DNA of 63,898 nucleotides from Desulfobacula sp. (GCA_018702715.1 JABIYQ010000120.1:1-63898); one strand, 5' to 3'; positions 2-43,783 are shown, numbered from the stretch's first letter. Translations and numbers: made by a program. The notes: generated from the sequence alone by a model not told the origin.

Positions 2-238
2 AAACCTTTTTTATCCTGTTTGGAAAAAATGAAAATTAGGGCGTCCCAGGCGATATATGTGGGAGACGATTTACAAAAGGATGTCCTTGGAGCAGGTGAT
101 GTCGGAATGAATCCTGTATGGCTCAAACACTTTTCTGTGAAACGGTCCTGGCCTGATCCGGAAACGAATACAGGGTTTCGCATCATAACCGATCTGAATG
201 AATTGCTTGAAATTGATGAAACCAGGCCATATCTGTGA
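2..238 (+). CDS. HAD-superfamily hydrolase, C-terminal part (gene starts before the window)
   Basis: Frame is open from base 2 (KPFLSCLEKM...); HAD motif IV 'YVGDDLQKDVLGAGDVGM' followed by 'PVWL' and 'ITDLNELL' tail. Confidence 0.85.
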   Translation, partial: KPFLSCLEKMKIRASQAIYVGDDLQKDVLGAGDVGMNPVWLKHFSVKRSWPDPETNTGFRIITDLNELLEIDETRPYL

Positions 239-825
239 CTAACGCATCCCTTCTCCCACAAAATCATGCTCTTATTTATAAAAAATTGCTGGCTTGCGTA
301 AAAGCATTTGAATTTGAAAATGCTTTAAAAATTTGTATGCAGTATCATATAATACCGAGTTTGGCAGATATGGAAAGGCTTATTGATGACCTTGTTGCGC
401 AAAGAGAATCAAGGGTTAAGGGTCACCCTACCCATAAGCTTGATACACGGATAAGGGCTTTAAAAAGATTTCGTGATCATGGATGTGATCCTGGGCAGAT
501 AATTGAAAAAACAACACTGGAGCAAGGATATAACGGCAAGATATTAATTGTGGCGATTATGGGTGGCGTTATAGACAGGTTGACCTGCCTGCGATCCGGG
601 GATCTCTGGCATAGGGAAATTTTACAAAATACAAAAAATGAAATCAGGGATTTGGGATTTTCTAAAAGTTCTGTCTATGAACTTGGCGGGGCCAATGTCC
701 GGTTTGAAACAAATAAAGACATTGTAATATTTGGAACAAGCGATGATTTCGGTCCATGTGACAAAGTATGTGCTTCAAAGCTTATTCAACAGGTTTTTAA
801 AGATAGAAATATTATAGTTGATTAA
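235..825 (+). CDS. Hypothetical protein with C-terminal PHPT1/Janus-Ocnus-like (phosphohistidine phosphatase-like) domain
   Basis: GTGA overlap with the HAD stop; motif order K-ILIV...LRSG-DLWH-REI...ELGGA-N-V...IVIFGTS-DDFGP parallels PHPT1 K-YVLI...VRG...YH-ADI...CLGGGRI...IHVYGYS-MAYGP (from memory). Confidence 0.7.
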   Translation: MTNASLLPQNHALIYKKLLACVKAFEFENALKICMQYHIIPSLADMERLIDDLVAQRESRVKGHPTHKLDTRIRALKRFRDHGCDPGQIIEKTTLEQGYNGKILIVAIMGGVIDRLTCLRSGDLWHREILQNTKNEIRDLGFSKSSVYELGGANVRFETNKDIVIFGTSDDFGPCDKVCASKLIQQVFKDRNIIVD

Positions 826-846: not shown

Positions 847-2067
847 TTGACCAAAGAGAAATTTAAAATTCTATTTTACTGCTGGTTCATATATGGTTTC
901 TTTTACCTGAACCGATTAAATCTTTCTCCAGTTATTCCGCTGATCATGTCAGATCTTAATATTTCCCATGCCCGTATCGGCCTTATAGGAGCTTCGTTTT
1001 ATGTTTTCTATACACTGGCCCAGCTTCCTGCCGGCTACCTGAGTGACCTGTTCGGTGCCAGGAAGGTTATTTTTGCAGGAGGATTGATTTCCGCTTTTTC
1101 AAATATAGTATTCAGTTTTGGCAGCGGATTATGGCATCTGGTGCCTTCTCAGTGCCTCAATGGTTTGGGGCAGGGATGCGGTTTTAGCCCAATTATTAAA
1201 ATCATAGACCAACACTTTTCTTTCAATCAAAGAGGGAGAGCATTGGGTCTGGTCATGACATCCACTGCTGTTTTTACAGTTGCGGCATTCTTCCTTGCCG
1301 CGTATATCGGCCAGACATTCGGCTGGCGCGCGGTTTTCTGGTCAGCACCTCTGGTTTTTATACCTGTACTCATTATTTTTAAATTAGTCATCAAAGCATC
1401 GTCTATTGACACGCCTTCCAGTACTGATGAGACGGAGTCCGACAGCCTGAAGGCAATTAAAAACAAATCTTTTGTCCAGATAAACAGCTGGGTCTTTTCA
1501 AGGAAAATGTGTTTTTTAGATTTGGGTTTTTTTTGCCTGTGTTATATCACATCCAGTAATTTGATCTGGCTGCCTTCCTTTTTGTTTGAAAGTTATGATA
1601 TGTCTTTGGTTCAAGCAGGTTTCTTTGCAGCACTTTACCCCCTGTCAGGAATTATTTCCAGGCCTTTGGGAGGGTATATTTCCGATGTGTTTTTCAAGGG
1701 GAAAAGAAAACAGACCATCTTGATCGGGTTGTTTATTATCTTAATATCCACATTGCTACTATTCCGGATTGAGGATTTTAGTATCAATATATATTTTATA
1801 ATTTTAATAGGCTTTTTTGATAATTTAATAGGCCCTCTGTTTTTTGCCTGGATGCTGGATCTGGTACCGAAGAATAAAAGTGGGAGCGGTGCAGGGGTAC
1901 TTCAGTTTTTCGGGCATATTGGGACTATTCTATCAATATATTTTTCAGGTATTGCAGTGGATTTCTTTCATTCATATCGGCCGTTTTTTATGATCATGTC
2001 GGCCATTTCAATTTTAGGAATCATATCTATATGGTTAATTGCTGAATCCGAAGAAAAAAGTCCATAA
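847..2067 (+). CDS. MFS transporter, GlpT/UhpT (organophosphate:Pi antiporter)-like
   Basis: About 12 hydrophobic segments; 'FYLNRLNLS' TM1 Arg motif; MFS loops 'GYLSDLFGARK' and 'GGYISDVFFKGKRK'. Confidence 0.8.
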   Translation: MTKEKFKILFYCWFIYGFFYLNRLNLSPVIPLIMSDLNISHARIGLIGASFYVFYTLAQLPAGYLSDLFGARKVIFAGGLISAFSNIVFSFGSGLWHLVPSQCLNGLGQGCGFSPIIKIIDQHFSFNQRGRALGLVMTSTAVFTVAAFFLAAYIGQTFGWRAVFWSAPLVFIPVLIIFKLVIKASSIDTPSSTDETESDSLKAIKNKSFVQINSWVFSRKMCFLDLGFFCLCYITSSNLIWLPSFLFESYDMSLVQAGFFAALYPLSGIISRPLGGYISDVFFKGKRKQTILIGLFIILISTLLLFRIEDFSINIYFIILIGFFDNLIGPLFFAWMLDLVPKNKSGSGAGVLQFFGHIGTILSIYFSGIAVDFFHSYRPFFMIMSAISILGIISIWLIAESEEKSP

Positions 2068-2169: not shown

Positions 2170-3090
2170 CTAATTAATTATTTTATCTTTAATTGAACGG
2201 TGATATTCAAGTGCCCATTGATCAACCTTTTTAATCAATTGTTTGAGCACTTCAGAGAAATATTTGTCTTTATGATGCACAATATAAAATTTGTGCGTGA
2301 TCGGCGGCCCTGGGAACGGCAGCACAGAAAGTTTTTTTTGTTGGATATGACCATAAACAGTATTCCTTGAAACCAGTGCAATGCCAAGACCGTCTTCTAC
2401 AGCTTTTTTGATGGCCCTGTTGCTTGAAAGTTCAAGTGAGACAACAATATCCACTTTATTTTTTCTTAAAAAATCATGTGTGATCTGAAAGGAAAGGGAC
2501 CCTTTTTCATGAATAATCATGGATTGTCCTGAAAGATCCATATAGGTTAACCTTTTTTTCTTTACAAGGGGATGGGATGGTGAAGCAACAAAAATCATAT
2601 GATCTTCAAGGATTTCACGGCAAATTACTTTTTCGTTTTTTATGGGATAGGATATAAACCCGATATCATTATTCAGGTTGGCAACATTTTCCACAACAAG
2701 GTTGGAGGGTAAGATGTTTACTGAAAAGCGTACATTGGGATGTCCTTTGCTTACCGGGTTCAATATTGGCGGCAGATAATAAGCTCCAAAACTCTCGCTT
2801 GCATCAATACGGATATGGCCCTGCTTTTGCTGTAAGAATTCCCTGATCGTAGCCTCGGCATGGATTTCAAGATCAAATATTTTTTCAGCAATTTTATGTA
2901 ATGCAATGCCGGCATCCGTTAAAACCAGCTTTTTACCGAATCGGTTAAAAAACTTTATGTCATAGTATTCCTGGAGACGCTGAATACCTTTTGTTATGGC
3001 CGGTTGGGTAACATTGAGTTCTTCTGCAGCTTTGCTTAAAGACCCCATTTTGCTTGAAAGGTAAAAAATTTTAAGTTGACCAAGATTCAT
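2170..3090 (-). CDS. LysR-family regulator (CysL/CmpR-like), lysR1
   Basis: HTH 'SLSKAAEELNVTQPAITKGIQRLQE', 'LTDAG', substrate-binding domain 'SNRAIKKAVEDGLGIALVS'. Confidence 0.95.
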   Translation of the reverse strand: MNLGQLKIFYLSSKMGSLSKAAEELNVTQPAITKGIQRLQEYYDIKFFNRFGKKLVLTDAGIALHKIAEKIFDLEIHAEATIREFLQQKQGHIRIDASESFGAYYLPPILNPVSKGHPNVRFSVNILPSNLVVENVANLNNDIGFISYPIKNEKVICREILEDHMIFVASPSHPLVKKKRLTYMDLSGQSMIIHEKGSLSFQITHDFLRKNKVDIVVSLELSSNRAIKKAVEDGLGIALVSRNTVYGHIQQKKLSVLPFPGPPITHKFYIVHHKDKYFSEVLKQLIKKVDQWALEYHRSIKDKIIN

Positions 3091-3197: not shown

Positions 3198-3248
3198 GGA
3201 GTTCACCGCATTAATCGGGGAAATTTGCGGTAATTTAAGATAAAGGTT

Positions 3249-3347
3249 TTATGGGTTATTGATCAGATTAATAAATCGCTTGAGTGGTCCAAAAATATGT
3301 TTTTCTCTGTGATGGATCATGTAAAATGTTATGGGCATGGTCACTGA
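3249..3347 (-). pseudogene. 3' relic of a lysR2 paralog with an internal in-frame deletion
   Basis: Translates SVTMPITF|YMIHHREKHIFGPLKRFINLINNP*, versus lysR2 SVTMPITF...TFYMIHHMEKHISEPLKQFMNLIQQQ*. Confidence 0.9.
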
Positions 3348-3429
3348 ACCTACTGTGGACTCCGTCGTTTGGACAGTTAGATACCTCAGTTGCATGTATG
3401 CATGGACGAATCCCCAAAGTAGTTGATAA

Positions 3430-4530
3430 CTAAGGAAAAACAGCTACTCTGATATGCTCACCTGAAGCTGCGGCCCGAAGCCCTTGATTGATATCGTCCA
3501 ATGTCACATGGTGTGAAACGAGTGATTTAAAGGGGAATTCTCCACATGTTTTAGACAGAAAATCGACTCCCATTTGTAAATGTTTTGTATCATAGTTATG
3601 AACACCCATTACATTGAGCATTCTTAAAACAATATCTCCTGCGTCATAATCAAAATCAGCACCTTTAAAAACGATTCCAACCAATGCATAGCGCCCCCCA
3701 ATTCTCAGGGATTTTAAACCCAAAGGTATAATTGATGGCAGTCCAGCCGCTTCAATGGCGCAATCCACACCATGGCCATGGGTTAAAGACAAAATTGTAT
3801 CAATTATTTCACTATTTTCCATGTTTTTGGTATTGATGGTTTTTGTAGCACCAAATTTTTTGATTGCATCCAGCCTGTGATCAAGAATATCCGTTACAAT
3901 GATTTGATTGCACCCATAATAATTGGCCAGTGCGGATGCATAAAAGCCCAAAGCCCCGGCGCCTTGGATCAAAATATTTTCAAGAGGCTGAATTTTTAAT
4001 GCCTCCAAAGCTGCTACTGCAGTTGCCAGTGTGCAATTTGCAGGGGCAACTTCTTCATCGGAAAGGTTTTCAGGTATTTTGACAACACATGTTCCCGGTG
4101 TGATATAACAATGTTCAGCAAAACCACCTGCTAAATGAGGCGGATTTGCACAAGAATCATGCCCGTATTTGCGAAGGCTGCGGCATTTCATCATCAGTCC
4201 TTTTTCTCGGCAAAAGAAACATTTTCCGCAATTATCCATAATTGTCCATGTGATACGGTCACCTACATTCAAGAGCTGATCTCCGGAATCATGGGTCACC
4301 CCATGGCCAAGCTCTACAATTTTACCAATAATTTCATGGCCAAGAATTATGGGAACCGGGGATTTCCTCCGGCCCTGCCAGGTATGCAGATCTGAACCAC
4401 AGATAGTACAGCAGATGACTTTAACCAAAATACAGTCTTTTTCCACCTGTGGCAAAGGATATTCAATGAGTTCCAGATCCTGTTTCGGGATTTTCATTAC
4501 AGCAGCCCTGCTGGTTTGTTTCACAGTCAA
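3430..4530 (-). CDS. Zn-dependent alcohol dehydrogenase, phosphonate-catabolism-associated (TIGR03366/HpnZ-like)
   Basis: ICGSDLH, GHE, structural Zn CGKCFFC...C, family-typical 'KCRSLRKYGH' and 'APANCTLAT', GAGALG; last gene of the phnDCEE operon. Confidence 0.85.
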   Translation of the reverse strand: MTVKQTSRAAVMKIPKQDLELIEYPLPQVEKDCILVKVICCTICGSDLHTWQGRRKSPVPIILGHEIIGKIVELGHGVTHDSGDQLLNVGDRITWTIMDNCGKCFFCREKGLMMKCRSLRKYGHDSCANPPHLAGGFAEHCYITPGTCVVKIPENLSDEEVAPANCTLATAVAALEALKIQPLENILIQGAGALGFYASALANYYGCNQIIVTDILDHRLDAIKKFGATKTINTKNMENSEIIDTILSLTHGHGVDCAIEAAGLPSIIPLGLKSLRIGGRYALVGIVFKGADFDYDAGDIVLRMLNVMGVHNYDTKHLQMGVDFLSKTCGEFPFKSLVSHHVTLDDINQGLRAAASGEHIRVAVFP

Positions 4531-4635
4531 CCATCCTTTACTTACTATTTTTTTGGATAAAATATGTTTTAATTATTAATTCAAGGGGGTAATCAAAATA
4601 ATCATACCAATTTTAAATGAATAGTGATCCTTTCT

Positions 4636-5496
4636 TTATCCCATTTTGGCACCGACTCTTTGCCTGGCCCAGGCCGAAGCTACTTCAGAAATAATAACCA
4701 ATGCTATAATAGATAAAAGTATTGCCGCCACCCGGTTGCTTTCTATCTGCTGAACAGTCCTTCGAAGATACCATCCCATGCCTCCGGCACCGAAGAACCC
4801 GACTACTGTAGCAGCCCTGAAAGCTGTGTCCCAGGTATAAATAGATATCCCGGTCCAGGCGACCTTAACCTGGGGCAATACTGCATAGACAAATACCTGC
4901 AGAGAGTTTGCCCCTGTAGCTTGAATCGCCTCAACCTGACCAATGGAAATGTCTTCAATTTCTTCTGAGAACAATTTGCCCGCAAATCCAATACTGAACA
5001 GGGTAAGTGCCAAAACCCCGGGCAACATGCCGAATCCGATAATGGTCACAAAAAGAATGGTCCATATCATTTCATGCACGGAGCGACAAAGTATGAGAAA
5101 AAAGCGGGCTGCAGGATATAAAAAGCGTTTATTGGGGGACATGTTATAGGAGGCAAACCAGGAAAGCGGTATGGAAAAAAGGATACCGAAAAGAGCTCCC
5201 AGATATGCCATTTTAATGGTTTCAATGACATAATGGAGATATTCACTGTCTAAAATATAGTCTATGTCCACCGGATAGTATCGGTTGGCAAACAGGTCTG
5301 CGATCCTCGGAAACAGCTCCAGCAAACGTTCCAGATGGATATTCAGGTATTTAATGGAAACTGTAATGAAAATCAGGATACCCATCAGGACAATATACTT
5401 GATCAAAGATTGTGGATATTTGAATCGTTTCCAGGTTAATGTTCCACCGCTGGTTGTTGAAATGGTTGTGGCTGACATCGAAATACTTCCTTTCAC
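4636..5496 (-). CDS. phnE: Phosphonate ABC transporter permease
   Basis: 'RSVHEMIW', 'GKLFSEEIEDI', EAA loop 'EAIQATGAN', 'GAGGMG'. Confidence 0.93.
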   Translation of the reverse strand: MKGSISMSATTISTTSGGTLTWKRFKYPQSLIKYIVLMGILIFITVSIKYLNIHLERLLELFPRIADLFANRYYPVDIDYILDSEYLHYVIETIKMAYLGALFGILFSIPLSWFASYNMSPNKRFLYPAARFFLILCRSVHEMIWTILFVTIIGFGMLPGVLALTLFSIGFAGKLFSEEIEDISIGQVEAIQATGANSLQVFVYAVLPQVKVAWTGISIYTWDTAFRAATVVGFFGAGGMGWYLRRTVQQIESNRVAAILLSIIALVIISEVASAWARQRVGAKMG

Positions 5497-5509
5497 TTAT
5501 TTTCCATAA

Positions 5510-6328
5510 TTAATGAATGGCTTTACGACCGTAGTAGGAGCATACTTCACCGATGGCAATAAGAAAAATTATGGCGATAATTACCGTTGTCACGCCGCCA
5601 TAATTATACATAACCAACTGACGATGAAAGGTCAGTCCCAAGCCTCCGGCACCGACAAGACCCATGATCGTGGCCCGCCGGATATTGATATCCCATTGGA
5701 AGATGACATGACCGAGAAAGATCGGCAACACCTGAGGAACCACACCAAACAATATGACCTGCAGGCCATTACCGCCCACTGCCTTGATCGCCTCCAAAGG
5801 CCCGGGGTCAATGTCCTCAACCGCTTCAGCCGTAAGCTTTGAAATAAAGCCGATGGATCGCATGGACACGGCAAGAATGCCCGGAAAGGCGCCAAGACCC
5901 ACCGCAGATACAAAAATCAGGCCCCAGACAATCTCGTGGACCGATCGGGTCAGTGTCATAATCGCCCGTCCTATGGGGTATGCGATCAACTTTGAGGGCG
6001 TTATATTCAGGGCGGCACACCAGGCAACGGGAAGGGAGATCACCACCGCAATCATGGTACCCAGACAGGCAATCATAAAAGTTTCGATGGTCGGGCCGAG
6101 CAGATGTTTAAAAACCGATGGATCTGGTGGGAAAAAGCGGGCTACTGCCTTGAAAAGGGATGCGGGTCCGCCAACCCTTGCCCAGTCAGTGTCCTTGATA
6201 ATAGTACTTTCGATACTCCATAAAATAAGTCCGAATAATATCAGATACCCCGTATACCTGATTGCTTTGGATTTTAGTCGATTTGAAAGAATAGTGTCAA
6301 GATGCTGGTCTATATTTTCGTGGCTCAT
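5510..6328 (-). CDS. phnE: Phosphonate ABC transporter permease
   Basis: 'RSVHEIVWGL', 'KLTAEAVEDIDPGPLEAIKAVG', 'WDINIRRATIMGLVGAGGLG'. Confidence 0.93.
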   Translation of the reverse strand: MSHENIDQHLDTILSNRLKSKAIRYTGYLILFGLILWSIESTIIKDTDWARVGGPASLFKAVARFFPPDPSVFKHLLGPTIETFMIACLGTMIAVVISLPVAWCAALNITPSKLIAYPIGRAIMTLTRSVHEIVWGLIFVSAVGLGAFPGILAVSMRSIGFISKLTAEAVEDIDPGPLEAIKAVGGNGLQVILFGVVPQVLPIFLGHVIFQWDINIRRATIMGLVGAGGLGLTFHRQLVMYNYGGVTTVIIAIIFLIAIGEVCSYYGRKAIH

Positions 6329-6345
6329 ACTGCTTCCTTTATTTT

Positions 6346-7098
6346 CTACAATATTTCCATTGCATATATTTCGTCCAGGGTGGCCTTGTCCACGTCTCTG
6401 GTTGGCCCGTCAAATTTCTTGATGCCATCCTGAAGGCCGATGACCTTATTGGAAAACTCCAGTGCCAGCTGGACATCATGGATATTGCACAAGACGGGCA
6501 CATCCATATCCTGGGACATTGTTCTAATCATCCCCATGACTTCCCGTGCTATTTTGGGATCCAGACTTGATGTGGGTTCATCAACGAGCAAAATTTTGGG
6601 TTCCTGGATCAGAGCCCTGGCGATCCCCACCCGCTGCCGTTGACCACCGCTAAGTTCATCAGCCCGTTTATCCACAAAATCCCCCAGACCGACTTTATCC
6701 AGCAATTCCAGTGCCTTGCGGATTTCACGTTTGGGATACATGCGCAAAAAACTTCTAACTGTTCCCACATAGCCCAGCCGGCCGGAAAGAACATTGTCTA
6801 TCACAGACATTCTTTCCACCAGATTAAACTCCTGAAATATCATTCCCATATCTCTTCTGGCTCGGCGTAGTGCACGATTACCCATTTGGGTAATATTCTT
6901 TCCCGTCAGAAAAACCTCTCCCGAAGTAGGTTCCACCAGGCGGTTGATACAGCGTATCAATGTGGATTTACCGGCACCGCTGGGCCCGATGATAGCAAAA
7001 AAATCCCCTGGTGAAACTGACAGGCTGACTCCTTTGAGAATTTCAGGGCCAGAGCGAGAGTAGCGTATCTTTAAATCTTTAACTTCCAGTGTGGCCAT
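6346..7098 (-). CDS. phnC: Phosphonate ABC transporter ATP-binding protein
   Basis: GPSGAGKST, 'GMIFQEFNLVER', 'NVLSGRLG', LSGGQRQRVGIARAL, DEP. Confidence 0.95.
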   Translation of the reverse strand: MATLEVKDLKIRYSRSGPEILKGVSLSVSPGDFFAIIGPSGAGKSTLIRCINRLVEPTSGEVFLTGKNITQMGNRALRRARRDMGMIFQEFNLVERMSVIDNVLSGRLGYVGTVRSFLRMYPKREIRKALELLDKVGLGDFVDKRADELSGGQRQRVGIARALIQEPKILLVDEPTSSLDPKIAREVMGMIRTMSQDMDVPVLCNIHDVQLALEFSNKVIGLQDGIKKFDGPTRDVDKATLDEIYAMEIL

Positions 7099-7168
7099 TT
7101 ATTTCTCCAATCCTTCCTTAATAAAATGGTAAAAAGCGGCGTGACATCGATTTTTTAATGACTATCTG

Positions 7169-8092
7169 CTAATCTTTCTTTTTTTTCTTTGCATCTTTGG
7201 CTTTTTTAAGATCACGAATAACATCATAGTCTGCAGATGTCATCTTAACGAATTTATTGGAGTTGACGTTTTTAAGATAAGCTGCGCAGGATGGCTGAGT
7301 GTGTAGTGTCAAAAACGTTTCTGCAATCTTTTTCTTCAGCTCCGGACACAGGGATTTACGATAACAGAAAGGATCCTGTGGGATTGCCGGCGAAAACCAA
7401 AGGTAATTGAAATCCTCTTTTTTCACCATACCTCGTTCTATAACATTATCAAACCTATGTGTCGCAACAAAGGCGGCATCCACTTTTCCATCGTAAACCG
7501 CCATTGTCGAAAGATCATGCCCGCCTGTATACACGACTTTTTTGAAATAGCTTTCCAGAGTTGTATTGATAGTTTTTGTAAACACCACCCTGGGAACCAG
7601 GTTCCCGGATGTACTGGCCGGATCAGTGAGCCCGATAACCGCCCCTTTCAGTGATTCGATAGTGTCAAACTCACTGCCTTTGCGGGTAATCAGACAGGCC
7701 TTGTAACCAGGGCCCTCTTCCTGAATATGTCCAGGTTTCTTGGCATAGGTGGCAAAGACGTCGATATCCGGGTCCTTGGCATTGGCTAAAACATAGGAAT
7801 AGGGTCCATGTACTGCAACATCTACCCATTTGCCGATCATGGCTTCAACAACAGTAGCATAGGATGTGGGCATATAAAATTCGACTTTTTTTCCTGTCAT
7901 TTTGGCAAGATAATCAATAACCGGTTTATAAATTGTCAATTCCTGAATAGTTTCTTCGGTGGGAATTATTGAGAATGTAATTGAATCTGGGTCCTCGCAC
8001 CCGGCGGCTTGAGCACTGCCGGATACAGAAAACATTATAAAAAAACTCAAGAAAAGGGTCATAGCCATGAAAAAGTTTCTATTCTTATACAT
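7169..8092 (-). CDS. phnD: Phosphonate ABC transporter substrate-binding protein (phnD1)
   Basis: Signal peptide; 'GPYSYV', 'DPASTSG', 'GGHD', 'IPQDP'; first gene of phnDCEE. Confidence 0.93.
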   Translation of the reverse strand: MYKNRNFFMAMTLFLSFFIMFSVSGSAQAAGCEDPDSITFSIIPTEETIQELTIYKPVIDYLAKMTGKKVEFYMPTSYATVVEAMIGKWVDVAVHGPYSYVLANAKDPDIDVFATYAKKPGHIQEEGPGYKACLITRKGSEFDTIESLKGAVIGLTDPASTSGNLVPRVVFTKTINTTLESYFKKVVYTGGHDLSTMAVYDGKVDAAFVATHRFDNVIERGMVKKEDFNYLWFSPAIPQDPFCYRKSLCPELKKKIAETFLTLHTQPSCAAYLKNVNSNKFVKMTSADYDVIRDLKKAKDAKKKKKD

Positions 8093-8340: not shown

Positions 8341-9000
8341 TTACAGATTTGAAATAGATGTATATTTTTTCCGAATGGCATACTTAACAATATCTGCCGT
8401 TGTTTTCAAGTTCTTTATTGCCATAATATTTGCCCGGTGTTTTTCAACGGTTCTGACACTTAAAAACAATAGCCTGGCAATTTCATTGTTTGTTTCTCCT
8501 TGAGAGATGAGTGTGAGTACTTCCCGTTGGCGGTTAGTGAGTGTTTGTGGTTTCGAAATCTGGTCACCATGACATTTTTTAATGAAATTTAAAGTCAAGT
8601 CCTTGGTAAATGTTTTTGATATATATATACCGCCATTAATCACCGTTTTTATTGCCGCAAAAAGTTCGGCCCCGGCATCTTGTTTTAGTACATATCCGTC
8701 TGCTCCTGCTGAAATGGAATGTTGAAGATATTCCATATTATTATGCATAGTAAGAATGATAACTTTTACAGCAGGGTCGATCTGTTTTATTTCCCGGGTT
8801 GCCTCTATTCCACGAATTTTAGGCATGGAAATGTCTAAAAGGACGAGGTTAGGAGACATTTCATCGATCATTTGCAAAAGCTCAAATCCGTCATTTGCCT
8901 CGCCGATAACTTTTATATAATCAATATCTTCAAGTATTTTTGTCATGCCAAGGCGAAACATTATATGATCATCAGCAAGCAATGTTCGATAGATTTTCAC
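8341..9000 (-). CDS. NarL/LuxR-family response regulator
   Basis: 'LADDH', 'LLDISMP', 'ILTMH', HTH 'LTNRQREVL...EIARLLFLSVRTVEKHRANI'. Confidence 0.95.
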   Translation of the reverse strand: MKIYRTLLADDHIMFRLGMTKILEDIDYIKVIGEANDGFELLQMIDEMSPNLVLLDISMPKIRGIEATREIKQIDPAVKVIILTMHNNMEYLQHSISAGADGYVLKQDAGAELFAAIKTVINGGIYISKTFTKDLTLNFIKKCHGDQISKPQTLTNRQREVLTLISQGETNNEIARLLFLSVRTVEKHRANIMAIKNLKTTADIVKYAIRKKYTSISNL

Positions 9001-11026
9001 TCTTTTCCCTCCTGATTATAAATGATATTCTAGTGCCTTTTCCTTTTTGGGCAATGATATTCAAATATGACCCCAGCATCAAAGCCCTTTCCTGCATAGC
9101 TGCCAATCCAATACCTTTTTGAGTAGACTGCCTTGAGGATAGTTCAGTTAGATCAAATCCAACGCCATTATCTTCCATAATAAAAATGATTTCGTTCTTT
9201 TTTTTTTGAATTGAAACGCTGATGGCGTCAGCATTAGCATGTTTTCCCACATTGGTTAAAAACTCTTGAAAAATTCTGTAAACCATTATCTGGTTTTCCG
9301 ATACAAAGCAGGCATCAATATTATCAATATTCAGTGAGTATTTAGTGGGGTAATGGTCAGAAAATTCATTAAGCATCCATTTTAATGCCGCTGTCAATCC
9401 CAAATCTTCCAGGATTGACGGGCTAAGATCCCTTGACAGACGTCGAACGTCTTCAATTATAAAATCGATATATTCTTGAATATCAGTCAATGTTTCATCA
9501 TTAAATTTGTTCTCACAGCCTTCTTTTGTTTGTAGGAAACTCAGCTTTACCTTTAACAAGGATAGAGATTGTCCCAAATCATCATGCAGCTCACAAGATA
9601 GTTGTCTACGTACTTTTTCCTGAGTTGTTAGAACCCGTGAAGACAGCCTTCTGAGTTTTCTTTCAGAATTTTTCAGTGCTCTTTCTGTAATGATATGCTC
9701 TTTAATTTCTTTTTTTAAAAATTTGTTTGTTATCGATAACTCGCCTGTTCGCCTTTCGACCTTCTGTTCCATTTCGTCATAAGCCTTTTTCAGATTTGCT
9801 TGTGTACGCTTCAGATCAGCTATATCCTGTGCTACGCAAACAATTCCGTCAACCTGGGAATTATTATTAAAAAAAGTTGAGCCTGAAAAGAGAACAGGAA
9901 TTTTTATGCCATCCTTTGTTAGATAAATCATTTCAACATTGGCAATTGAACCCTTATGAACAAATAAGTCAATTATGGAGGTATCGGTATTTTCAGGCAG
10001 AATTATATTTTCAATGGACTGCCCCAAAAGTTCGTCCCGGCTATAACCCAGCATATCGGTGGCCGACTGATTGACCTTTCTGATTGTGAAGTCAGGATTT
10101 GCAACAATCAATGTATCCAGCATTGACTTGACTATGTTATCCATATAGGTTTTTGAAACGGTTGATTCTCTTAAATCTTTTATCATATTGTTAAATACAT
10201 CCGTTAAAACTCCAATCTCATCTTTGCTTTTGATCTTTATTCTGGTTTCAAAGTTTCCTTTGCCAACATTTTTGGCAGCAGCTGTCAGGTCATTGATGGG
10301 TTTGAAAACATAGCTTGACACCCAGCCACCCAGTAATAAGGTACTTAATAGGATTAGTATGGTTGAAAAAATTATGATGACGCCAACATTCGGCAGGTAT
10401 TCAATAATGATTTTTTTAACTCTCTGTGCATTCTCTTTTTGTTTGTTTTTCCTGTATTGTTCTATAATTGGATAAATGTTCAGCTTATAGTGAGGTTCAA
10501 GTGTCTTTTTAAAAAAACGAGGTGCGTTTTCAGGTATGTTTTCAACAAGATGAATGAAATGAGATAGGTATTTCAAGTAATAATAAAAGTGTTTTTTTTC
10601 TACATTATGCCTGCCTGTCAAAATAGTTTGTTCGCTATTATTAAATTGGGGTTTTCCATCCTTTTGAATCCTGTAAAATTCTGTTCCAATTAATGAAGAC
10701 AAACTGCTTTCAACCTTGTTAAGATCTGTTATCAATTTTTTCTTGATCTGATCCTTGTTTTCTAACTCCTGGTTCGTATCGGAAATTTGTGAAAATGTAT
10801 AGATTATTTTAGGCTGATTATCAATCAGGGCTTTTATTGATTCTTCGCTGGTTTCAAGGGCGTGGACTATCTTATAGGAAGATTTGAATATTTCAATGGA
10901 ATCAGCTTCCAGCTGAACTATTTTATTTTTTAATTTGTTAAATGATGTAATCGTCAAATAACCGGCGCCACACATCATCAAAGCAATGGTAATGTATCCG
11001 AAAATAAGTTTATGCGTAAGACTCAT
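8972..11026 (-). CDS. Sensor histidine kinase (TM-periplasmic-TM-HAMP-PAS-HisKA_3-HATPase)
   Basis: HAMP 'SKDEIGVLTDVFNNM', PAS 'VNQSATDMLGYSRDELLG', H-box 'ELHDDLGQSL', 'QEFLTNVGKHANA', 'DNGVGF', 'GIGL'. Confidence 0.95.
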   Translation of the reverse strand: MSLTHKLIFGYITIALMMCGAGYLTITSFNKLKNKIVQLEADSIEIFKSSYKIVHALETSEESIKALIDNQPKIIYTFSQISDTNQELENKDQIKKKLITDLNKVESSLSSLIGTEFYRIQKDGKPQFNNSEQTILTGRHNVEKKHFYYYLKYLSHFIHLVENIPENAPRFFKKTLEPHYKLNIYPIIEQYRKNKQKENAQRVKKIIIEYLPNVGVIIIFSTILILLSTLLLGGWVSSYVFKPINDLTAAAKNVGKGNFETRIKIKSKDEIGVLTDVFNNMIKDLRESTVSKTYMDNIVKSMLDTLIVANPDFTIRKVNQSATDMLGYSRDELLGQSIENIILPENTDTSIIDLFVHKGSIANVEMIYLTKDGIKIPVLFSGSTFFNNNSQVDGIVCVAQDIADLKRTQANLKKAYDEMEQKVERRTGELSITNKFLKKEIKEHIITERALKNSERKLRRLSSRVLTTQEKVRRQLSCELHDDLGQSLSLLKVKLSFLQTKEGCENKFNDETLTDIQEYIDFIIEDVRRLSRDLSPSILEDLGLTAALKWMLNEFSDHYPTKYSLNIDNIDACFVSENQIMVYRIFQEFLTNVGKHANADAISVSIQKKKNEIIFIMEDNGVGFDLTELSSRQSTQKGIGLAAMQERALMLGSYLNIIAQKGKGTRISFIIRREKSENLSNIAC

Positions 11027-11101: not shown

Positions 11102-11995
11102 TTATTCTATTTTTTGTTCTAATTCCCGTATCACATCATAATCTTCAGAGTTCATTTCTACAAAACCTTTGGCGTTAATATCTATCAGAAATTGAGAACA
11201 AGAAGATTGAGTGTGGAGGGTAAGAAAAGTATCAATGATCTTTTTTTTCAATTCCGGGCATAAAGAATTTCTGTAACAAAAAGGATCCTGGGGGATAATC
11301 GGCGAACTCCATAAATAATTATAGTCATCTTTTTTTATAATTCCCCTGTTAATGGCATTATCAAATCGATGGGTGGCTACAAATGCTGCATCTATTCTTC
11401 CATCATATATGGCCATGGCAGACAGGTCGTGGCCGCCAGTATAAACTATCTTACCAAAATATTTTTCAAATGGCATATTGATATATTTTGCAAATAACAC
11501 CTTTGGTATCAGGTACCCCGAGGTGCTTGATAGATTTGTGAGACCTACTATGGCGCCTTTTAAAGATTTAATGGAAACATAGCCTGACCCTTTTTCGGTT
11601 ATGAGTATGGATTTATAGCCCGGCCCTTCTTCTTGAATATAACCGGCTTTTTTTATATAGGTGGCAAAAACCTGAATGTCCGGTTCCTTTTTATTGGCAA
11701 TCACATAAGAGTATGGCCCAAGAATAGCCACATCTATCCATTTTTCCGCCATGCCCTGAATCACGTTTTCATAATATATTGGCACATAGAATTCTATTTT
11801 TTTCCCAGTCATCCTCCCAAGATAATCGATAACCGGCTTGTAAATGGTTAACTCCTGAATACTCTCTTCAGTGGGAATTATGGAAAAAACCAATGTTTCC
11901 GGGTCCTCACATCCAGCAGAGGATTGCCTGGTATTCAGGTTTAAAGCAACCATCATAATAGATAACATAAATAATAATTGAGTAAATTTTTTCAT
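11102..11995 (-). CDS. phnD: Second PhnD-like binding protein (phnD2), probable sensory accessory of the kinase
   Basis: Long identical blocks with phnD1 (FSIIPTEE.IQELTIYKPVIDYL, IQEEGPGYK, VYTGGHDLS, DAAFVATHRFDN, IPQDPFCYR.SLCPELKKKI); lies directly upstream of the kinase, not of permeases. Confidence 0.88.
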   Translation of the reverse strand: MKKFTQLLFMLSIMMVALNLNTRQSSAGCEDPETLVFSIIPTEESIQELTIYKPVIDYLGRMTGKKIEFYVPIYYENVIQGMAEKWIDVAILGPYSYVIANKKEPDIQVFATYIKKAGYIQEEGPGYKSILITEKGSGYVSIKSLKGAIVGLTNLSSTSGYLIPKVLFAKYINMPFEKYFGKIVYTGGHDLSAMAIYDGRIDAAFVATHRFDNAINRGIIKKDDYNYLWSSPIIPQDPFCYRNSLCPELKKKIIDTFLTLHTQSSCSQFLIDINAKGFVEMNSEDYDVIRELEQKIE

Positions 11996-12197: not shown

Positions 12198-13415
12198 CTA
12201 TAACCCATTACAACGATTAATAAGATAATCAAAAAGCTCCCAATTCTTTACGCTTTTCTTTTGCTTATCCTCATCAACCGTCTCGCTCAAAACGAAGGGC
12301 ACTGTTGTCTCAGTAAGGCCACCATGAGATCGCAACGGCCCTTTGAGTTTTGATAGATCATGGTTTGCTGGTGTCTTGCCAAATACCGTATCCCTTTGGG
12401 CAAGGACAACAAGATCACCCATCCTGTCGGCTGGAAGGGCATATTTTCGGCATGCTTCATTCTTTGTAAGCACCTCGTCAATGCCCTTAGTTCTCGACAG
12501 CATAACTTTTATCAATTCACTTTCCTTTTCAAGGCAGTAAACCGTGGCAAATGAACCCAAGGCAGCATGGTGAGTGACATAGGGGTCAGTGATGGGTAGC
12601 ACAACACGAATTTGGCTTCCAACAAACCGGGTAATAACATCTTCCAAGTAAATTATATTCGGCGTACCGTCAGCCTTGATCTTGTAATTCATTCCATGGT
12701 CAGCAGTTATGCCCACCCTGGCGCCCCTGTCTATGAATTTTCCGATTATTTCATCTATCTCTGAAAGCATAATGTTCGCTTCATCCTGTCCTGGAGCTGA
12801 TCTGTGCTGTACGCAATCGGTCAAAGAAATATACATAAGGTCCAAAGATGTCCGGCAAAATACAAGATATGCTGCCTGCATGGTGTAGCGGTTAATGCAT
12901 GCTTCAGAGTAATGTGGAGGTGCTTCATTAAGTTCTTCTGCCACATTTCCGATGTCGGCGAATTGGGTCTGGTCTGCCCTTTCACCGGAAAATGCAACAC
13001 CTTCCCAGCCCTTTGATAAGAGTTTGAGCAGTTTGTTTTTAGCAGTAATAGCTGCGACAAGGTGGCCTGCCCGGGACGCCGCTTCAAGAATAGTGGGGAC
13101 ACGTAAGAATTCAGGTTTATCCATCATCACTTCGCAGTCCTGTTCCACATCGTAGAAATAATTCCCGCAGATACCATTTTTCTCTGGTTCAGTCCCGGTA
13201 ATAATGGCAATATTGTTGGGATTGGTAAAGGAGGGCATGACCGAAGTAGCGGTCATAAAATATTTCTCTTCCTTCAGTTTTTTCATCACCGGCATGCACC
13301 CTGACCTGATAGCTGATTCAAGGTATGCAGGAGAAGTGCCGTCCAGGCAAATAGCCACCACCGGTTGATAGATCTTCTGATATAGAGTGCCATTAAGCTT
13401 AAATGGTTCTTTCAC
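12198..13415 (-). CDS. phnA: Phosphonoacetate hydrolase
   Basis: 'ICLDG', nucleophile motif 'PSFTNPNN', 'D.VQH', 'TADHGM', 'LPITDPYVTHH', 'DRMGD', 'LRSHGG'. GTG start at 13415 chosen for its GAGG RBS (ORF track starts at 13445). Confidence 0.93.
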   Translation of the reverse strand: MKEPFKLNGTLYQKIYQPVVAICLDGTSPAYLESAIRSGCMPVMKKLKEEKYFMTATSVMPSFTNPNNIAIITGTEPEKNGICGNYFYDVEQDCEVMMDKPEFLRVPTILEAASRAGHLVAAITAKNKLLKLLSKGWEGVAFSGERADQTQFADIGNVAEELNEAPPHYSEACINRYTMQAAYLVFCRTSLDLMYISLTDCVQHRSAPGQDEANIMLSEIDEIIGKFIDRGARVGITADHGMNYKIKADGTPNIIYLEDVITRFVGSQIRVVLPITDPYVTHHAALGSFATVYCLEKESELIKVMLSRTKGIDEVLTKNEACRKYALPADRMGDLVVLAQRDTVFGKTPANHDLSKLKGPLRSHGGLTETTVPFVLSETVDEDKQKKSVKNWELFDYLINRCNGL

Positions 13416-13693
13416 AATAATTCTTCCTCTATTCTTGAGTGGCATAATTATGTATGGTAAACATAAATCGGCACCTTACCTTAAATTTCCAACTTGCAGT
13501 CAACATAACATATTTGCAAATCCCTTATCGAAAATATCAATATATAAAATAGCGAGGAAAATTGTAAAAACCAACAATAAAATAAATTTATGGGTCCCTA
13601 TATTAAGATTAAATAATTACAACGTGTTACGTTGATTTGCTCTCAATTTTTTTTAAAATTAGTTTCGCTGGATAAAAAAATGACGAACTTGAG

Positions 13694-39071: not shown

Positions 39072-41255
39072 TTAGGATATCATCATCAGTTTGACTATAA
39101 AAACAGTACCACTGGATACAGAATCAACTGAAGAATGCTTCCGGCTTTCACATTCCATAATTCCACCTAAGCCGGTTATAATGCCATAACTCACAAAAAG
39201 TCCCAGCCCGGTTCCTCTGCCTGTAGCTTTGGTAGTGAAAAAAGGTTCGAATATATGGTCAATGTCTTTGTCCTCTATTGCAATCCCTTCATCTTTAAAC
39301 CGAACAACAACCATGTGAAGATGAGAGTCCATAAATGTTTGAATTGTCAATCTTCCGCCCTGGGGCATAGCGTCGACAGCATTGTTTATAAGGTTGAGAA
39401 AAACCTGCTGCAGCTTTCTAAAATTTCCTATTACAAGTGGAATTGTGTCCAAAAGATCCATGGACAAGGAGATTCCCTCTTTTTTAATGCGGTGGGTTAC
39501 AATTTTGATGGCATCTTTTATACAGAGGTTCAGATCTGTCTGTTGGTGGCCATTGTCTTCTCCCGTGTGTACAAAACCCAAAAGGTTTTCCACGATCTCT
39601 TTGCAATGAAGCCCTTGGCGTTCTATTATTTTAAGGTCTTTATAATCCTGGGAGGTGTTGTCTCTTTTCCGCAGCATAAGGTCACAGAACCCCAGTATAA
39701 CCCCAAGCGGATTGTTGATTTCATGGGCTACCCCTGCGGACAGTGTGCCCAGGGAAACTAATTTTTCAGTGTGTATCAGATGGCGTTCAAGTTTTTTGTC
39801 TTCGGTTATGTCCCTTGCAATGCACAGGACCCAATGTACATTTTCCTTTTCACTTCGCACAGGCACCATATTGGCAGCTAAAAATATCTGGGTGCCGTCA
39901 AGGTCAAACCCGGATTCATCTCTGATACTTTTTCCGCTTTCAAAAACCCTGGGGATAAGACCTTCCAGCTTGTCACTCAATTCTTTTGGGAATAGCGATG
40001 ACAGTTCTTTTCCTATATGATCGTCAGCCCTGGATTTGAAAAAATTGGAAGTAAAGCTGTTCATGGACTGGAATTTGCCCCTGGGGTCAACGGTGAAGAT
40101 GAAGTCTTCAGCGCTTTCCACAAGGGATCGGTATTTGGCTTCGGATTTTACGAGCTCCTCCGTCTGCCGGCTGGCCTCATTCTCCATCCGCCTGGACCAT
40201 TTTACTTCAAAAAACATGATAATTGAAGCGCCTGCAATAATGGCGAATATCACGGCAAGCTGCACGAAAAATTGATCCATGTATTTATTTTTGATGGCTT
40301 CTTCTATTTCAAAAACAGGAGCGACAACCGCTATGGACCACATATGAGTCGGGATTTCTGAAATCGTTACAGGGGTGTATGCGATCAGCTTTTCCATCCT
40401 GCCTGTAAGTCCCCTGTGCCATCCTGAAACATACCACCCTGTCCCTTCTAAGCCCGTTAGCATTTCATCTCTTTGTATCTTGTTTATCTCCACAAAAGAA
40501 ATGTCATGATCTTTTTCTTTTCTTGCCAGAAAAGCATTTTTACCGACAAATGAGCTGTCCGGATGAAAAAGAAAATGGCCTTCATTGTCGATGATCCATG
40601 CATACCCTGTCTTTCCGGATCTTATGTTCTTAAGGTAAGGGTCCAGGAACCATGAAATATTGACATGACAATAAATGATTCGTGAATCACTTTGGCCGAC
40701 AGGTGACCTTATTGTTATAAATATTCCAGACGATGTGATTTGGGGCTTTGAGACTCTCAGTTGATTAGTTTTTTCCAGATCAAAATCAAAGGGAAGAAAA
40801 GAGCTCTCTTCAAGGAGAGAACGGGAGACCTCTTTGCGGAAGGGGTGACCGGAATAAAGGATTCCGGCTTCCATGTCGTGAAATTCGATGGCACTGACGC
40901 CGCATTCAACTAAGCGGACCAGTGTTGACCTGATTGCCCTGTAGGGATCTTTGTAATTTTCAAGCTCTTTGGAAAGAATTCTCATTTCCCGCTTTAAAAA
41001 GGAGAATTCTCTCTCAATGAAGTTTTTAACGTTGTGCGCAATAACCATCTGCTCTCCATTAAACTGACCGCGCACGATCTTGCTCATCTCCCTGATGGAC
41101 CACTGGGACATCACTGCACTTGCCGCCACAAAGATGAGCGCTGTAAGTGTCACGATGATTACAATGCTTTTTTCAGTTTCAGGTCGCTGGTGCCTGTGGA
41201 CAGGTTCATGGCTGGAACTGAGTATTATGCCTGTATCTGATTTTTTCAAAACCAT
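39072..41255 (-). CDS. Sensor histidine kinase (Cache-PAS-HisKA-HATPase)
   Basis: 'GKTGYAWIIDNEGHFLFHP', PAS 'YRSLVESAEDFIFTVD', 'GVAHEINNPL', 'GTGLGL'. Confidence 0.94.
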   Translation of the reverse strand: MVLKKSDTGIILSSSHEPVHRHQRPETEKSIVIIVTLTALIFVAASAVMSQWSIREMSKIVRGQFNGEQMVIAHNVKNFIEREFSFLKREMRILSKELENYKDPYRAIRSTLVRLVECGVSAIEFHDMEAGILYSGHPFRKEVSRSLLEESSFLPFDFDLEKTNQLRVSKPQITSSGIFITIRSPVGQSDSRIIYCHVNISWFLDPYLKNIRSGKTGYAWIIDNEGHFLFHPDSSFVGKNAFLARKEKDHDISFVEINKIQRDEMLTGLEGTGWYVSGWHRGLTGRMEKLIAYTPVTISEIPTHMWSIAVVAPVFEIEEAIKNKYMDQFFVQLAVIFAIIAGASIIMFFEVKWSRRMENEASRQTEELVKSEAKYRSLVESAEDFIFTVDPRGKFQSMNSFTSNFFKSRADDHIGKELSSLFPKELSDKLEGLIPRVFESGKSIRDESGFDLDGTQIFLAANMVPVRSEKENVHWVLCIARDITEDKKLERHLIHTEKLVSLGTLSAGVAHEINNPLGVILGFCDLMLRKRDNTSQDYKDLKIIERQGLHCKEIVENLLGFVHTGEDNGHQQTDLNLCIKDAIKIVTHRIKKEGISLSMDLLDTIPLVIGNFRKLQQVFLNLINNAVDAMPQGGRLTIQTFMDSHLHMVVVRFKDEGIAIEDKDIDHIFEPFFTTKATGRGTGLGLFVSYGIITGLGGIMECESRKHSSVDSVSSGTVFIVKLMMIS

Positions 41256-41369
41256 ACCGCTTCCTGTTTTTAATGTGAACCCTGAGGCTAACAGAGTTTG
41301 AGTGATTACAACTTCAAATCAGCCCTTTGCAGGGTATTCTCCAGTTTTTTAATCTATATCGATTTAATG

Positions 41370-41384
41370 GCAATAATTGTGCCG
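41370..41384 (-). promoter_or_regulatory. Sigma54 -24/-12 promoter (kinase-EBP2 operon)
   Basis: CGGCACAATTATTGC. Confidence 0.78.
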
Positions 41385-41630
41385 ATAGGCCCAAATAAGA
41401 AAGTTTTGTATTATGTGCTTTAATATCAAACAGCTATCCCAAAATAACCAGGAATATCATCAGGGAAGATTTACCGGTAAGAGTGACGGACTTTTTTACA
41501 CTTTGTAAATATTGTGTACTTTTATCTCTGCATTCAGACGTCTCATGATCCTGAAATATCCTGTTTTTGTGGATCTATATACTTAATAAAAATAGTCGGT
41601 TATCAATATTTAAGTACAGAAGCTAATCTT

Positions 41631-41645
41631 TGGCATATAAATTGA
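41631..41645 (+). promoter_or_regulatory. Sigma54 -24/-12 promoter (PstS-like gene)
   Basis: TGGCATATAAATTGA. Confidence 0.65.
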
Positions 41646-41761
41646 AAAGTAAAAAAGTATAGTGAAAAAGTATAATTAAAAGGCAATACAGAAGAAATGA
41701 TTAAGAAATAACGCTGTTGTCAAACAGAATACTTTAACTTTATATGGAGGAAGAAAAACTC

Positions 41762-42568
41762 ATGAAAAAAATGATGAGTATCTTAAATGTATTATTTGCA
41801 AGCTTATTGGTATTATGGGCTATTGTGCCGCAGGCAGTGGCAAACGCTGATCAAAAATTACGATACAGTTGTTCTGCCCAGATTTATGAGGCATTTGAAA
41901 AGTCAAGATTGGACGCCTTTACAAAGGAAACAGGGATATCCATTGATCTGTTTGTTGCATCATCCAAGTCATGCGTGTATAGGGTGATGCAGGATATGAC
42001 CGACATCGCCGGCAGCACAAGGGCAATCTACCAGCGTCACAAGGATTTCGGGCTAAAGGAAATACCTTTTTGCAAGGACCCCCTGGCAGTCATTACCCAT
42101 AAAGACTCAATAGTCAATAATTTGAGCCCGGAACAGCTCCAGCAGATATTTTCCGGCGGAATCACTAATTGGAAAGAAGTAGGAGGGCCTGATTTGCTGA
42201 TTACGCTTGTTGTTCCCGGGAATGAAACCGGTGCCCATAAAAATTTTAAACGGCAGGTTATGACCCACAAAGAAATTAAATATGATTATTTAACCTATAC
42301 ATCCACCCGCGTTCTGGAGGCAATTGAACAACTGCCGGCAGGTGCCATATCCTTTATCTCAAGAGGTGCTCAGATCACCCATCCGAATATCAAGGTGTTG
42401 AGCATTGACGGCAAGAAACCGGGTGATAGAGATTATCCTTACTACCAGATATTTTACCTGGTTTCCAAAGGAGAGCCCAGAGGATCGGTTAAGGTATTTA
42501 TTGATTTTATTACATCAAAAAAAGGAAAGTCCATTATTCTGGAAAGAGGCATGCTGCCGATTAACTAA
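41762..42568 (+). CDS. Periplasmic binding protein, divergent PstS-like
   Basis: Signal peptide; 'DPLAVITH', 'QLQQIFSGGITNWKEVGGPD', 'GAISFIS', 'YPYYQIFYLV'; no pstCAB nearby. Confidence 0.8.
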   Translation: MKKMMSILNVLFASLLVLWAIVPQAVANADQKLRYSCSAQIYEAFEKSRLDAFTKETGISIDLFVASSKSCVYRVMQDMTDIAGSTRAIYQRHKDFGLKEIPFCKDPLAVITHKDSIVNNLSPEQLQQIFSGGITNWKEVGGPDLLITLVVPGNETGAHKNFKRQVMTHKEIKYDYLTYTSTRVLEAIEQLPAGAISFISRGAQITHPNIKVLSIDGKKPGDRDYPYYQIFYLVSKGEPRGSVKVFIDFITSKKGKSIILERGMLPIN

Positions 42569-42627
42569 TCCGATTAATTAATCCTAGCAGACCCATCAAA
42601 TTAGAAATAGTCTGAAGTAAATTGGAT

Positions 42628-42663
42628 ATGATAACCCTTTCCTTATCAGGAAAGGGTTATCAT
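42628..42663 (+). terminator. Intrinsic terminator-like hairpin
   Basis: ATGATAACCCTTTCCT-TATC-AGGAAAGGGTTATCAT (16-bp stem). Confidence 0.8.
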
Positions 42664-42755
42664 GTTTATGATATTGACAAAAAGTATCTTCCTATCCTAT
42701 GTTTTGTGTATTAAAAGAAGGATTCATCTACAATTATGCCATAAGGAAGGTCATC

Positions 42756-43718: not shown

Positions 43719-43728
43719 TTATGCTTTG

Positions 43729-43764
43729 AATCGCGTTGCAGGGTGAAACTCCCGCAACGCGATT
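43729..43764. terminator. Bidirectional terminator hairpin
   Basis: AATCGCGTTGC...GCAACGCGATT between convergent genes. Confidence 0.75.
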
Positions 43765-43783
43765 TACAAATTTTTAAAACGAT

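Follow-up and report, generated by a model that had tools for sequence, protein, structure and literature searches.

Introduction

The start of a 63,898-nt stretch of Desulfobacula sp. DNA (GCA_018702715.1, JABIYQ010000120.1:1-63898; the whole stretch is referred to here as the window) raises the question of what a protein resembling an animal phosphohistidine phosphatase does in a bacterium, next to genes for phosphonate use. An initial annotation, made from the DNA itself, had assigned the gene to the PHPT1/Janus-Ocnus family and called that family eukaryotic. In a paper from 2020 (PMC7948535), four phosphohistidine phosphatases have proposed in vivo targets, and SixA is the sole bacterial one. 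The eukaryotic label agrees with the literature examined: no paper on a prokaryotic PHPT1/Ocnus homologue was found in a search of titles and abstract openings, mostly outside subscription journals and with supplements excluded. Databases, in contrast, already attach PF05005 to bacterial members, as in the JGI label 'Janus/Ocnus family protein' and a bacterial ESM Atlas cluster of 176 members. What is new is a prokaryotic subfamily with the predicted PHPT1 fold that is linked to a phosphonate pathway predicted to depend on CoA.

Results and discussion

The PHPT1-like gene and its surroundings

The claimed reading frame is exact (Table 1). The preceding HAD gene and the PHPT1-like gene overlap in the sequence GTGA at 235-238, which contains the stop codon of the former and the start codon of the latter, and the MFS transporter gene that follows is likely co-transcribed with it. 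The MFS protein is closest to the PgtP/UhpC organophosphate group, with a score under the family cut-off. Further downstream, the zinc alcohol dehydrogenase is a likely candidate for a PbfG-type hydroxyethylphosphonate dehydrogenase.

Table 1. Positions of the features discussed. Positions are those of the window unless a locus is named; residue counts refer to 219 protein domains.
Feature	Position	Strand	Remarks
Cassette-type HAD hydrolase gene, 3' end	2..238	+	Gene truncated by contig start
PHPT1/Janus-Ocnus-like gene	235..825	+	196 aa, GTG start
N-terminal four-helix domain, aa 7-82	253..480	+	AF2 model
PHPT1-fold domain, aa 84-196	484..822	+	VIA against 2nmm_A
K102, probable K21 equivalent	538..540	+	K in 216/219
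R120, equivalent to PHPT1 R45	592..594	+	R in 214/219
H126, equivalent to catalytic H53	610..612	+	H in 217/219
N154, at the R78 site	694..696	+	Variable: H 86, L 58, Y 19 of 219
S169, equivalent to S94	739..741	+	S in 219/219
C175-D176-K177, replacing A100-Q101-H102	757..765	+	C175 in 218/219
MFS transporter gene	847..2067	+	21 nt downstream of the PHPT1-like gene
LysR regulator gene	2170..3090	-	Type recurring beside the cassette
Zn alcohol dehydrogenase gene	3430..4530	-	TIGR03366 'phosphonate catabolism associated', 317 bits, cut-off 328
PhnE, PhnE, PhnC, PhnD phosphonate ABC transporter genes	4636..8092	-	
Histidine kinase/response regulator pair	8341-11026		Within the phosphonate island of the window
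Second PhnD-like gene	11102-11995		
PhnA-like phosphonoacetate hydrolase gene	12198..13445	-	TIGR02335, 402 bits, cut-off 407.55
Deletion sites of the gene in close relatives	L106:14861-14915; L107:8536-8569; L108:14682-14690		

Comparison with four homologues gave dN/dS values of 0.12-0.23 for the PHPT1 domain, indicating purifying selection, and of 0.27-0.62 for the N-terminal part. Parts of the gene lie under RNA-library contigs at depth 3-5 in two of four runs; coverage of the control stretch 40000-46000, which was mapped at a stricter setting and is possibly not silent, is similarly patchy. The alcohol dehydrogenase region (3229-4600) is matched by a 3.7-kb RNA-library contig (run X1) with zero differences and depth 85, and contigs of this kind cannot rank expression. 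A scan for promoters and terminators remained at chance level (14 versus 10.7 +/- 3.9).

Fold and family

The protein scores 34 bits for PF05005 (Ocnus), whose cut-off is 23 (E 3.3e-8, aa 124-191), and this was the sole Pfam family at E values up to 10. The motifs quoted in the initial annotation, K102-ILIVAI, C118-Q131, Y148-K177 and K182-D190, are all present. A single-sequence phmmer search of the PDB gave no match for the protein. With a profile of 47 sequences, PHPT1 was the top but weak match (E 0.04), and with a more diverse profile of 52 sequences it was found at E 2.5e-7, the next match being at 0.007, with no other strong match.

The AF2 model of the 196-aa protein (mean pLDDT 90.4) consists of four N-terminal helices, as expected from the extra helical domain claimed earlier (aa 7-82), followed by an alpha/beta domain. 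Foldseek returned five chains at E <0.001, all human PHPT1 (E 2.1e-7; next 0.17). Comparison with PHPT1 structures had been proposed as a check of the assignment, and with VIA over 48,161 representatives the C-terminal domain (84-196) superimposes on residues 3-121 of chain 2nmm_A with Z 15.4 and rmsd 2.0 Å over 109 residues; the next chain has Z 5.9, and a second search gave the same outcome. Of the results named in advance as refuting the assignment, neither a failed superposition nor a lack of conservation among homologues was observed. For the four-helix domain, the best scores in whole-model searches were Z 5.9 and 5.7, too low for a clear structural match.

The product is a PF05005 family protein and is not filed as a PHPT1 orthologue, since R78 and H102 are not kept. 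Should the predicted P-N phosphatase activity be correct, the protein would share it with another bacterial enzyme, Escherichia coli SixA, the phosphohistidine phosphatase of NPr (PMC7948535). SixA is a member of the histidine phosphatase superfamily and acts via a phospho-enzyme, whereas PHPT1-fold enzymes are proposed to act without one. No histidine-phosphatase fold occurred among the Foldseek and VIA matches listed, and the PHPT1 match spans the whole domain.

The active site

The profile of the domain gave 340 matches in stored proteins and loci, of which 62 duplicate or partial rows were dropped to leave 219 protein and 59 locus domains; all conservation figures refer to the 219 protein domains. 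In the profile alignment, W125-H126-R127 pairs with Y52-H53-A54 of PHPT1. The site of PHPT1 has been listed as K21, H53, A54, R78, S94 and A96 (PMC4817053), and H53 is proposed to be a general base that acts without a phospho-enzyme intermediate (PMC11277029). R78 and H102 contribute to activity (PMC4817053, PMC11277029), the importance of H102 being stated in PMC11277029. Reported substrates are pHis, CheA and pLys (PMC11277029).

The set K21/R45/H53/S94 had been claimed to be kept. For R, H and S this holds by alignment, with 98-100% conservation, and checking of the homologues found each of the four residues in 214-219 of the 219 domains; the pairing of K102 with K21 is deduced from the offset between the superposed ranges (84..196 and 3..121) and not from a residue-resolved alignment. 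Loss of R78 and H102 was also borne out. N154 and K177 stand at these sites, both of which are replaced family-wide, with K at the H102 position in 204 of the 219 domains. The spacing, described earlier as near-identical, turned out to be similar: 18 versus 24 residues from K to R, 6 versus 8 from R to H, and 28 versus 25 from H to the R78 site.

Compared with human PHPT1 (EC 3.9.1.3; PDB 2NMM, 2HW4 and 2AI6; PF05005), the protein thus has the same predicted fold, keeps R45, H53, S94 and probably K21, and keeps the glycine-rich motif ahead of the R78 site. It differs in its low identity (14-16%), in the variable R78 site and the H102 to K and A54 to R replacements, in the mostly acidic residues at M95/A96 (D170/D171 here), in an invariant Cys at the position of A100 and in a shorter loop before R45, as well as in its additional N-terminal domain, its bacterial origin and its tie to a phosphonate cassette. 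The catalytic core is conserved and under selection, yet two residues that contribute to activity have been exchanged, and the predicted pocket has a more acidic rim. With R78 and H102 exchanged across the family and acidic side chains beside the pocket, the specificity may differ from that of PHPT1.

The loss of R78 and H102 would also fit reuse of the PHPT1 anion pocket in a non-catalytic module that binds phosphate or phosphonate, as a sensor or an allosteric partner. Free phosphate binds to the H53 pocket of PHPT1 (PMC11277029), and the domain is found attached C-terminally to a dehydrogenase and to helical scaffolds. A module of this kind is nevertheless improbable. Conservation of the general-base His (217 of the 219 domains) along with that of K, R and S exceeds the usual need of binding alone, and among the homologues examined fusions to domains for DNA binding or signalling do not recur.

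Homologues and domain architectures

Of the homologues, 96 are of near-equal length and 69 are longer, all of the latter being fusions to a D-2-hydroxyacid dehydrogenase; clustering at 50% left 99 representatives. Four architectures were distinguished: the helical plus PHPT1 domain of the window, a single domain, the dehydrogenase fusion, and a long form in which a helical solenoid precedes the PHPT1 domain (19 proteins of 418-558 aa). The four-helix domain is missing from the single-domain and dehydrogenase-fused homologues, and similar segments lie ahead of the PHPT1 domain in those of 418-558 aa. The long forms make up a separate branch with support 99/92, in a tree of 109 columns and limited resolution. 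For one of them Candidatus Woesearchaeota is named as the source, and its model matches PHPT1 with a target TM of 0.87. The long proteins P0213-P0253 keep K, H and S in their C-terminal PHPT1 domain.

Where carriers on the main branch are named, they are mostly MAGs of Desulfobacterales and Syntrophaceae, which suggests a Desulfobacterales-type anaerobe as the source of the window. The gene is rare: a pattern search across 185,579 species genomes located it at 47 loci, and it is in 2 of 401 genomes of a phylum sample. Two profiles detected no viral relatives, and a search aimed at eukaryotic homologues gave close prokaryote-type sequences only, among the best 120 of 136 matches.

The dehydrogenase-PHPT1 fusions (L019:7059-8345, L030:1823-3109; P0098-P0166) point away from the HD gene and the cassette, and are possibly PbfF-like racemases or a new phosphonate dehydrogenase. 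The two-domain protein is fused once to DUF6016 and once to a circularly permuted YpsA SLOG domain (P0175, P0181), and a WbuC-family cupin gene immediately precedes the PHPT1-like gene at L008:7390-7932.

The phosphonate cassette

Annotation of neighbouring genes covered 84 of 89 proteins in the main annotation round. Around the 47 loci, PhnW (409 bits, cut-off 361), PbfA (720, cut-off 525) and PhnC/D/E scored above their cut-offs, and a CoA-acylating aldehyde dehydrogenase (ALDH) was closest to SauS at 495 against a cut-off of 600. Other recurring neighbours are two genes resembling citryl-CoA lyase (CCL; the genes are called CCL-alpha and CCL-beta here), a HAD hydrolase gene, a phosphonate-associated membrane protein gene and LysR genes, and NUDIX, ASCH, HD and HAD-IIB genes recur beside the PHPT1-like gene. 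At least one phosphonate marker is present at 23 of the 47 loci, 11 of them with a CCL-like gene; two loci have the HAD gene alone and 22, many on short contigs, have none.

In the genome of the window the cassette lies on contig C591 (L048:11648-17093) in the order CCL-beta, CCL-alpha, phnW, acylating ALDH, HAD, and the same conserved cassette is seen in L005, L006, L013 and L106-L185. Its gene order is strongly conserved: among the best 80 of 195 metagenome loci with CCL-alpha, phnW or ALDH lies downstream at all 61 loci with enough flank, HAD at 21 of 29, and the PHPT1-like gene after HAD at 7 of 20 informative loci. In genomes G335 and G388, annotated by inspection, the HAD gene and CCL pair adjoin CoA-transferase-like genes instead of phnW and ALDH. 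Variant loci with a two-subunit CoA-transferase-like pair in that place are L056:3651-8811 and L057:6261-12272, the latter with an additional gene resembling succinyl-CoA synthetase beta (inspection and cross-BLAST).

The nearest solved relatives of both CCL-like subunits are citryl-CoA lyase (PDB 6HXP; E 1.9e-18 and 1.4e-10) and the CCL module of ATP-citrate lyase. Unlike citryl-CoA lyase, the cassette has two diverged subunits, which are encoded in phosphonate clusters. Both are without the catalytic His and Asp of the family, at positions that are catalytic in citrate synthase, and many invariant His and Arg residues are retained. The cassette HAD (L048:16356-17093) has the invariant first Asp of motif I, a Gly at the position of the general-acid Asp, and the invariant cap residues Y55, R56, R59 and R70. 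Phosphonatase and LHPP are further enzymes in which the general-acid Asp is lost. This HAD could itself be a C-P or P-N hydrolase; its profile had no PDB match at a strict threshold of E 1e-22.

Both PhnW and PbfA yield phosphonoacetaldehyde (PMC10574752), as do PbfG-type zinc dehydrogenases (PMC13576164). The acylating dehydrogenase would convert this aldehyde to phosphonoacetyl-CoA, and the CoA-transferase-like genes beside HAD and the CCL pair hint at that thioester as well. Since a beta-carbonyl group activates a C-P bond for hydrolysis (PMC10574752), cleavage to acetyl-CoA and a phosphoryl group would be the simplest ending. The cassette is therefore predicted to constitute a CoA-dependent route of phosphonate degradation with C-P cleavage. 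As in the PhnWX and PhnWYA systems with PbfA, PbfF and PbfG (PMC10574752, PMC12366243, PMC13576164), an accessory gene recurs near phnW, pbfA, a PbfG-like dehydrogenase gene and phosphonate transporter genes; unlike the PhnX or PhnY/PhnA endings, the host cassette includes a CoA-acylating dehydrogenase and the CCL-like pair. The available parts of those three papers contain neither a PHPT1-like gene nor a CoA route, and the main text of a 2023 phosphonate review, as far as available, has no CoA or citrate passage. A literature search, mostly outside subscription journals and with supplements excluded, found no paper on the cassette or on a phosphonoacetyl-CoA route.

The PhnA-like gene of the window offers an alternative exit via phosphonoacetate. 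Because this C-P hydrolase is present, the CCL pair need not cut the C-P bond in the genome of the window, which is 82% complete and gave no PhnX above the cut-off and no PhnJ. At L010, L045, L186 and L192 a gene of the alkaline phosphatase superfamily, 33-35% identical to the PhnA-like gene of the window, directly follows HAD. C591 also encodes, 4 kb upstream of the cassette (L048:3851-7740), an N-terminally extended, PFL-like glycyl-radical enzyme of 983 aa and a probable activating enzyme.

Co-occurrence of the gene and the cassette

Among 251 genomes of the order of the window, 19 have the PHPT1-like gene and 34 have CCL-alpha; the 17 that have both represent nine families. One of the 19 carriers has a fragmentary match. 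CCL-alpha is thus present in 17 of the 19 carriers versus 17 of the 232 non-carriers; the association is expressed as counts, since a Fisher test overstates it where genomes are kin. Of the two remaining carriers, one has an ALDH-HAD-gene-MFS contig that ends inside ALDH and the other a CCL-beta fragment at a contig edge. A search of the same 251 genomes with PF05005 gave 18 positives, all within the 19. In the phylum sample of 401, the gene is in two genomes, CCL-alpha in three and both in two. The sample of 251 genomes and the 47 loci are not independent of each other, as the GTDB collections behind them overlap.

The loci that have no phosphonate neighbours include a clade of 11 (support 100/95), which allows a more stringent test of the link. 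In 8 of 10 tested genomes of this unlinked clade, CCL-alpha (58-69% identity) is found elsewhere in the genome, adjoining ALDH, HAD, a TIGR03366-type dehydrogenase or PbfA. As a background, 6 of 151 genomes of the order of one clade member have CCL-alpha; only two of the 151 have a PHPT1-like domain, and both are among these six. For 10 marker-free loci outside the clade, a CCL match was found in 4 of 10 genomes, two of the matches being fragments. In genome G335 a distance of 5 kb separates the PHPT1-like gene from HAD and the CCL pair, at a locus with a CoA transferase and without phnW or ALDH; this single case ties the gene to the last step of the pathway. Outside the long archaeal-type forms, the gene therefore occurs almost only with the cassette, an association that is weaker in fragmentary genomes.

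The reverse is not true, as 17 of the 34 cassette genomes are without the gene. In the close relatives L106, L107 and L108, whose CCL-alpha proteins are 92-98% identical, it has been removed by three different deletions (Table 1); L107 and L108 keep gene stubs and MFS, and the deletion in L106 also takes MFS. The absence from half of the cassette genomes and the three deletions show that the gene is accessory and dispensable, not core, to the cassette. HAD is present in 35 of 38 genomes. A role of the gene as a substitute for HAD was considered for three genomes in which it directly follows ALDH, but all three have HAD elsewhere.

Dependence on the cassette suggests a metabolic role, away from signalling. 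Histidine kinases are near-universal in these bacteria, whereas the gene is found in just 19 of the 251 genomes and follows the cassette, and it is very unlikely that the protein serves as a signalling phosphohistidine phosphatase for a histidine kinase or PTS protein in the manner of SixA or animal PHPT1. Such a function would agree with the ability of human PHPT1 to dephosphorylate bacterial CheA (PMC11277029) and with the histidine kinase/response regulator pair inside the phosphonate island of the window, but kinase and regulator neighbours recur at few of the 47 loci.

Proposed role of the PHPT1-like protein

The reading preferred here, to which a probability of about 45% is given, is that the bacterial PHPT1-fold protein is a P-N hydrolase clearing phosphoryl groups that stem from the predicted C-P cleavage by the cassette. 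PhnW, PbfA and the PbfG-like enzyme would supply phosphonoacetaldehyde, from which the acylating dehydrogenase would make phosphonoacetyl-CoA, a step that may alternatively fall to the CoA transferase. The rewired CCL-like pair and the core HAD would then break the C-P bond to give acetyl-CoA, and the released phosphoryl group may sometimes land on nitrogen, either of a His or Lys of a cassette enzyme or of a small amine. H126 would activate water, like H53 of PHPT1, so that the phosphoryl group is removed as phosphate. The PHPT1-type pocket, the dependence on CCL and HAD, the dispensability of the gene and its NUDIX, ASCH and HD neighbours all argue for this reading. Repair enzymes are often accessory.

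A more specific version is doubtful: the citryl-CoA-lyase-like heteromer might split phosphonoacetyl-CoA to acetyl-CoA and a phosphohistidine, which the PHPT1-like protein would hydrolyse. If true, this would be the first metabolic role of the PHPT1 fold and a new type of C-P cleavage with a P-N intermediate.

It is less probable than clearance of phosphoryl groups, though possible, that the protein acts not on protein-bound phosphate at all but on a small molecule, such as a phosphorylated amino-alcohol or a phosphonate in O-ester or amide linkage, and thereby widens the substrate range of the cassette or clears a side product. Other accessories of phosphonate clusters, PbfA, PbfF and PbfG, widen the range of substrates (PMC12366243, PMC13576164), and the D-2-hydroxyacid dehydrogenase found in fusions shares a Pfam family with the racemase PbfF (PMC12366243). 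The gene is often co-oriented with the MFS transporter gene or placed after pbfA, and the loss of R78 together with acidic residues at 170/171 would suit a cationic small substrate. There is, however, no constant single neighbour, and MFS persists where the gene has been deleted (L107, L108). Since the dehydrogenase is likewise seen unfused or on its own, its fusion to the domain may be a consequence of adjacency. Furthermore, the dependence follows the CCL/HAD end of the cassette even where phnW is absent from the locus. Co-occurrence fits repair and widening of the substrate range alike and cannot separate them; related genomes do not count as independent cases.

By giving a prokaryotic PHPT1 branch a defined genomic partner, the association supplies a set of substrates that can be tested directly, for a fold with natural targets that remain under debate. 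It also suggests that this fold may function in metabolism or the repair of damage instead of signalling. A P-N hydrolase that exists only with the cassette would hint at a phosphoryl-nitrogen intermediate or by-product, and would be a clue to phosphonate mineralisation by anaerobes. Were the protein an ordinary promiscuous phosphatase, the finding would reduce to one more accessory gene.

A second copy in the genome of the window

The CCL pair of this genome is located on C591 and not on the contig of the window, and C591 ends with a second PHPT1-like copy of 83% DNA identity. The two copies are 70-85% identical upstream and 98-100% identical over 537-656 of the window, in the catalytic segment (537-674) near the end of C591. 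They represent either a duplication with conversion or two co-binned strains, the contamination of the bin being 5.3%. A second MFS copy, 90% identical, is found on C190.
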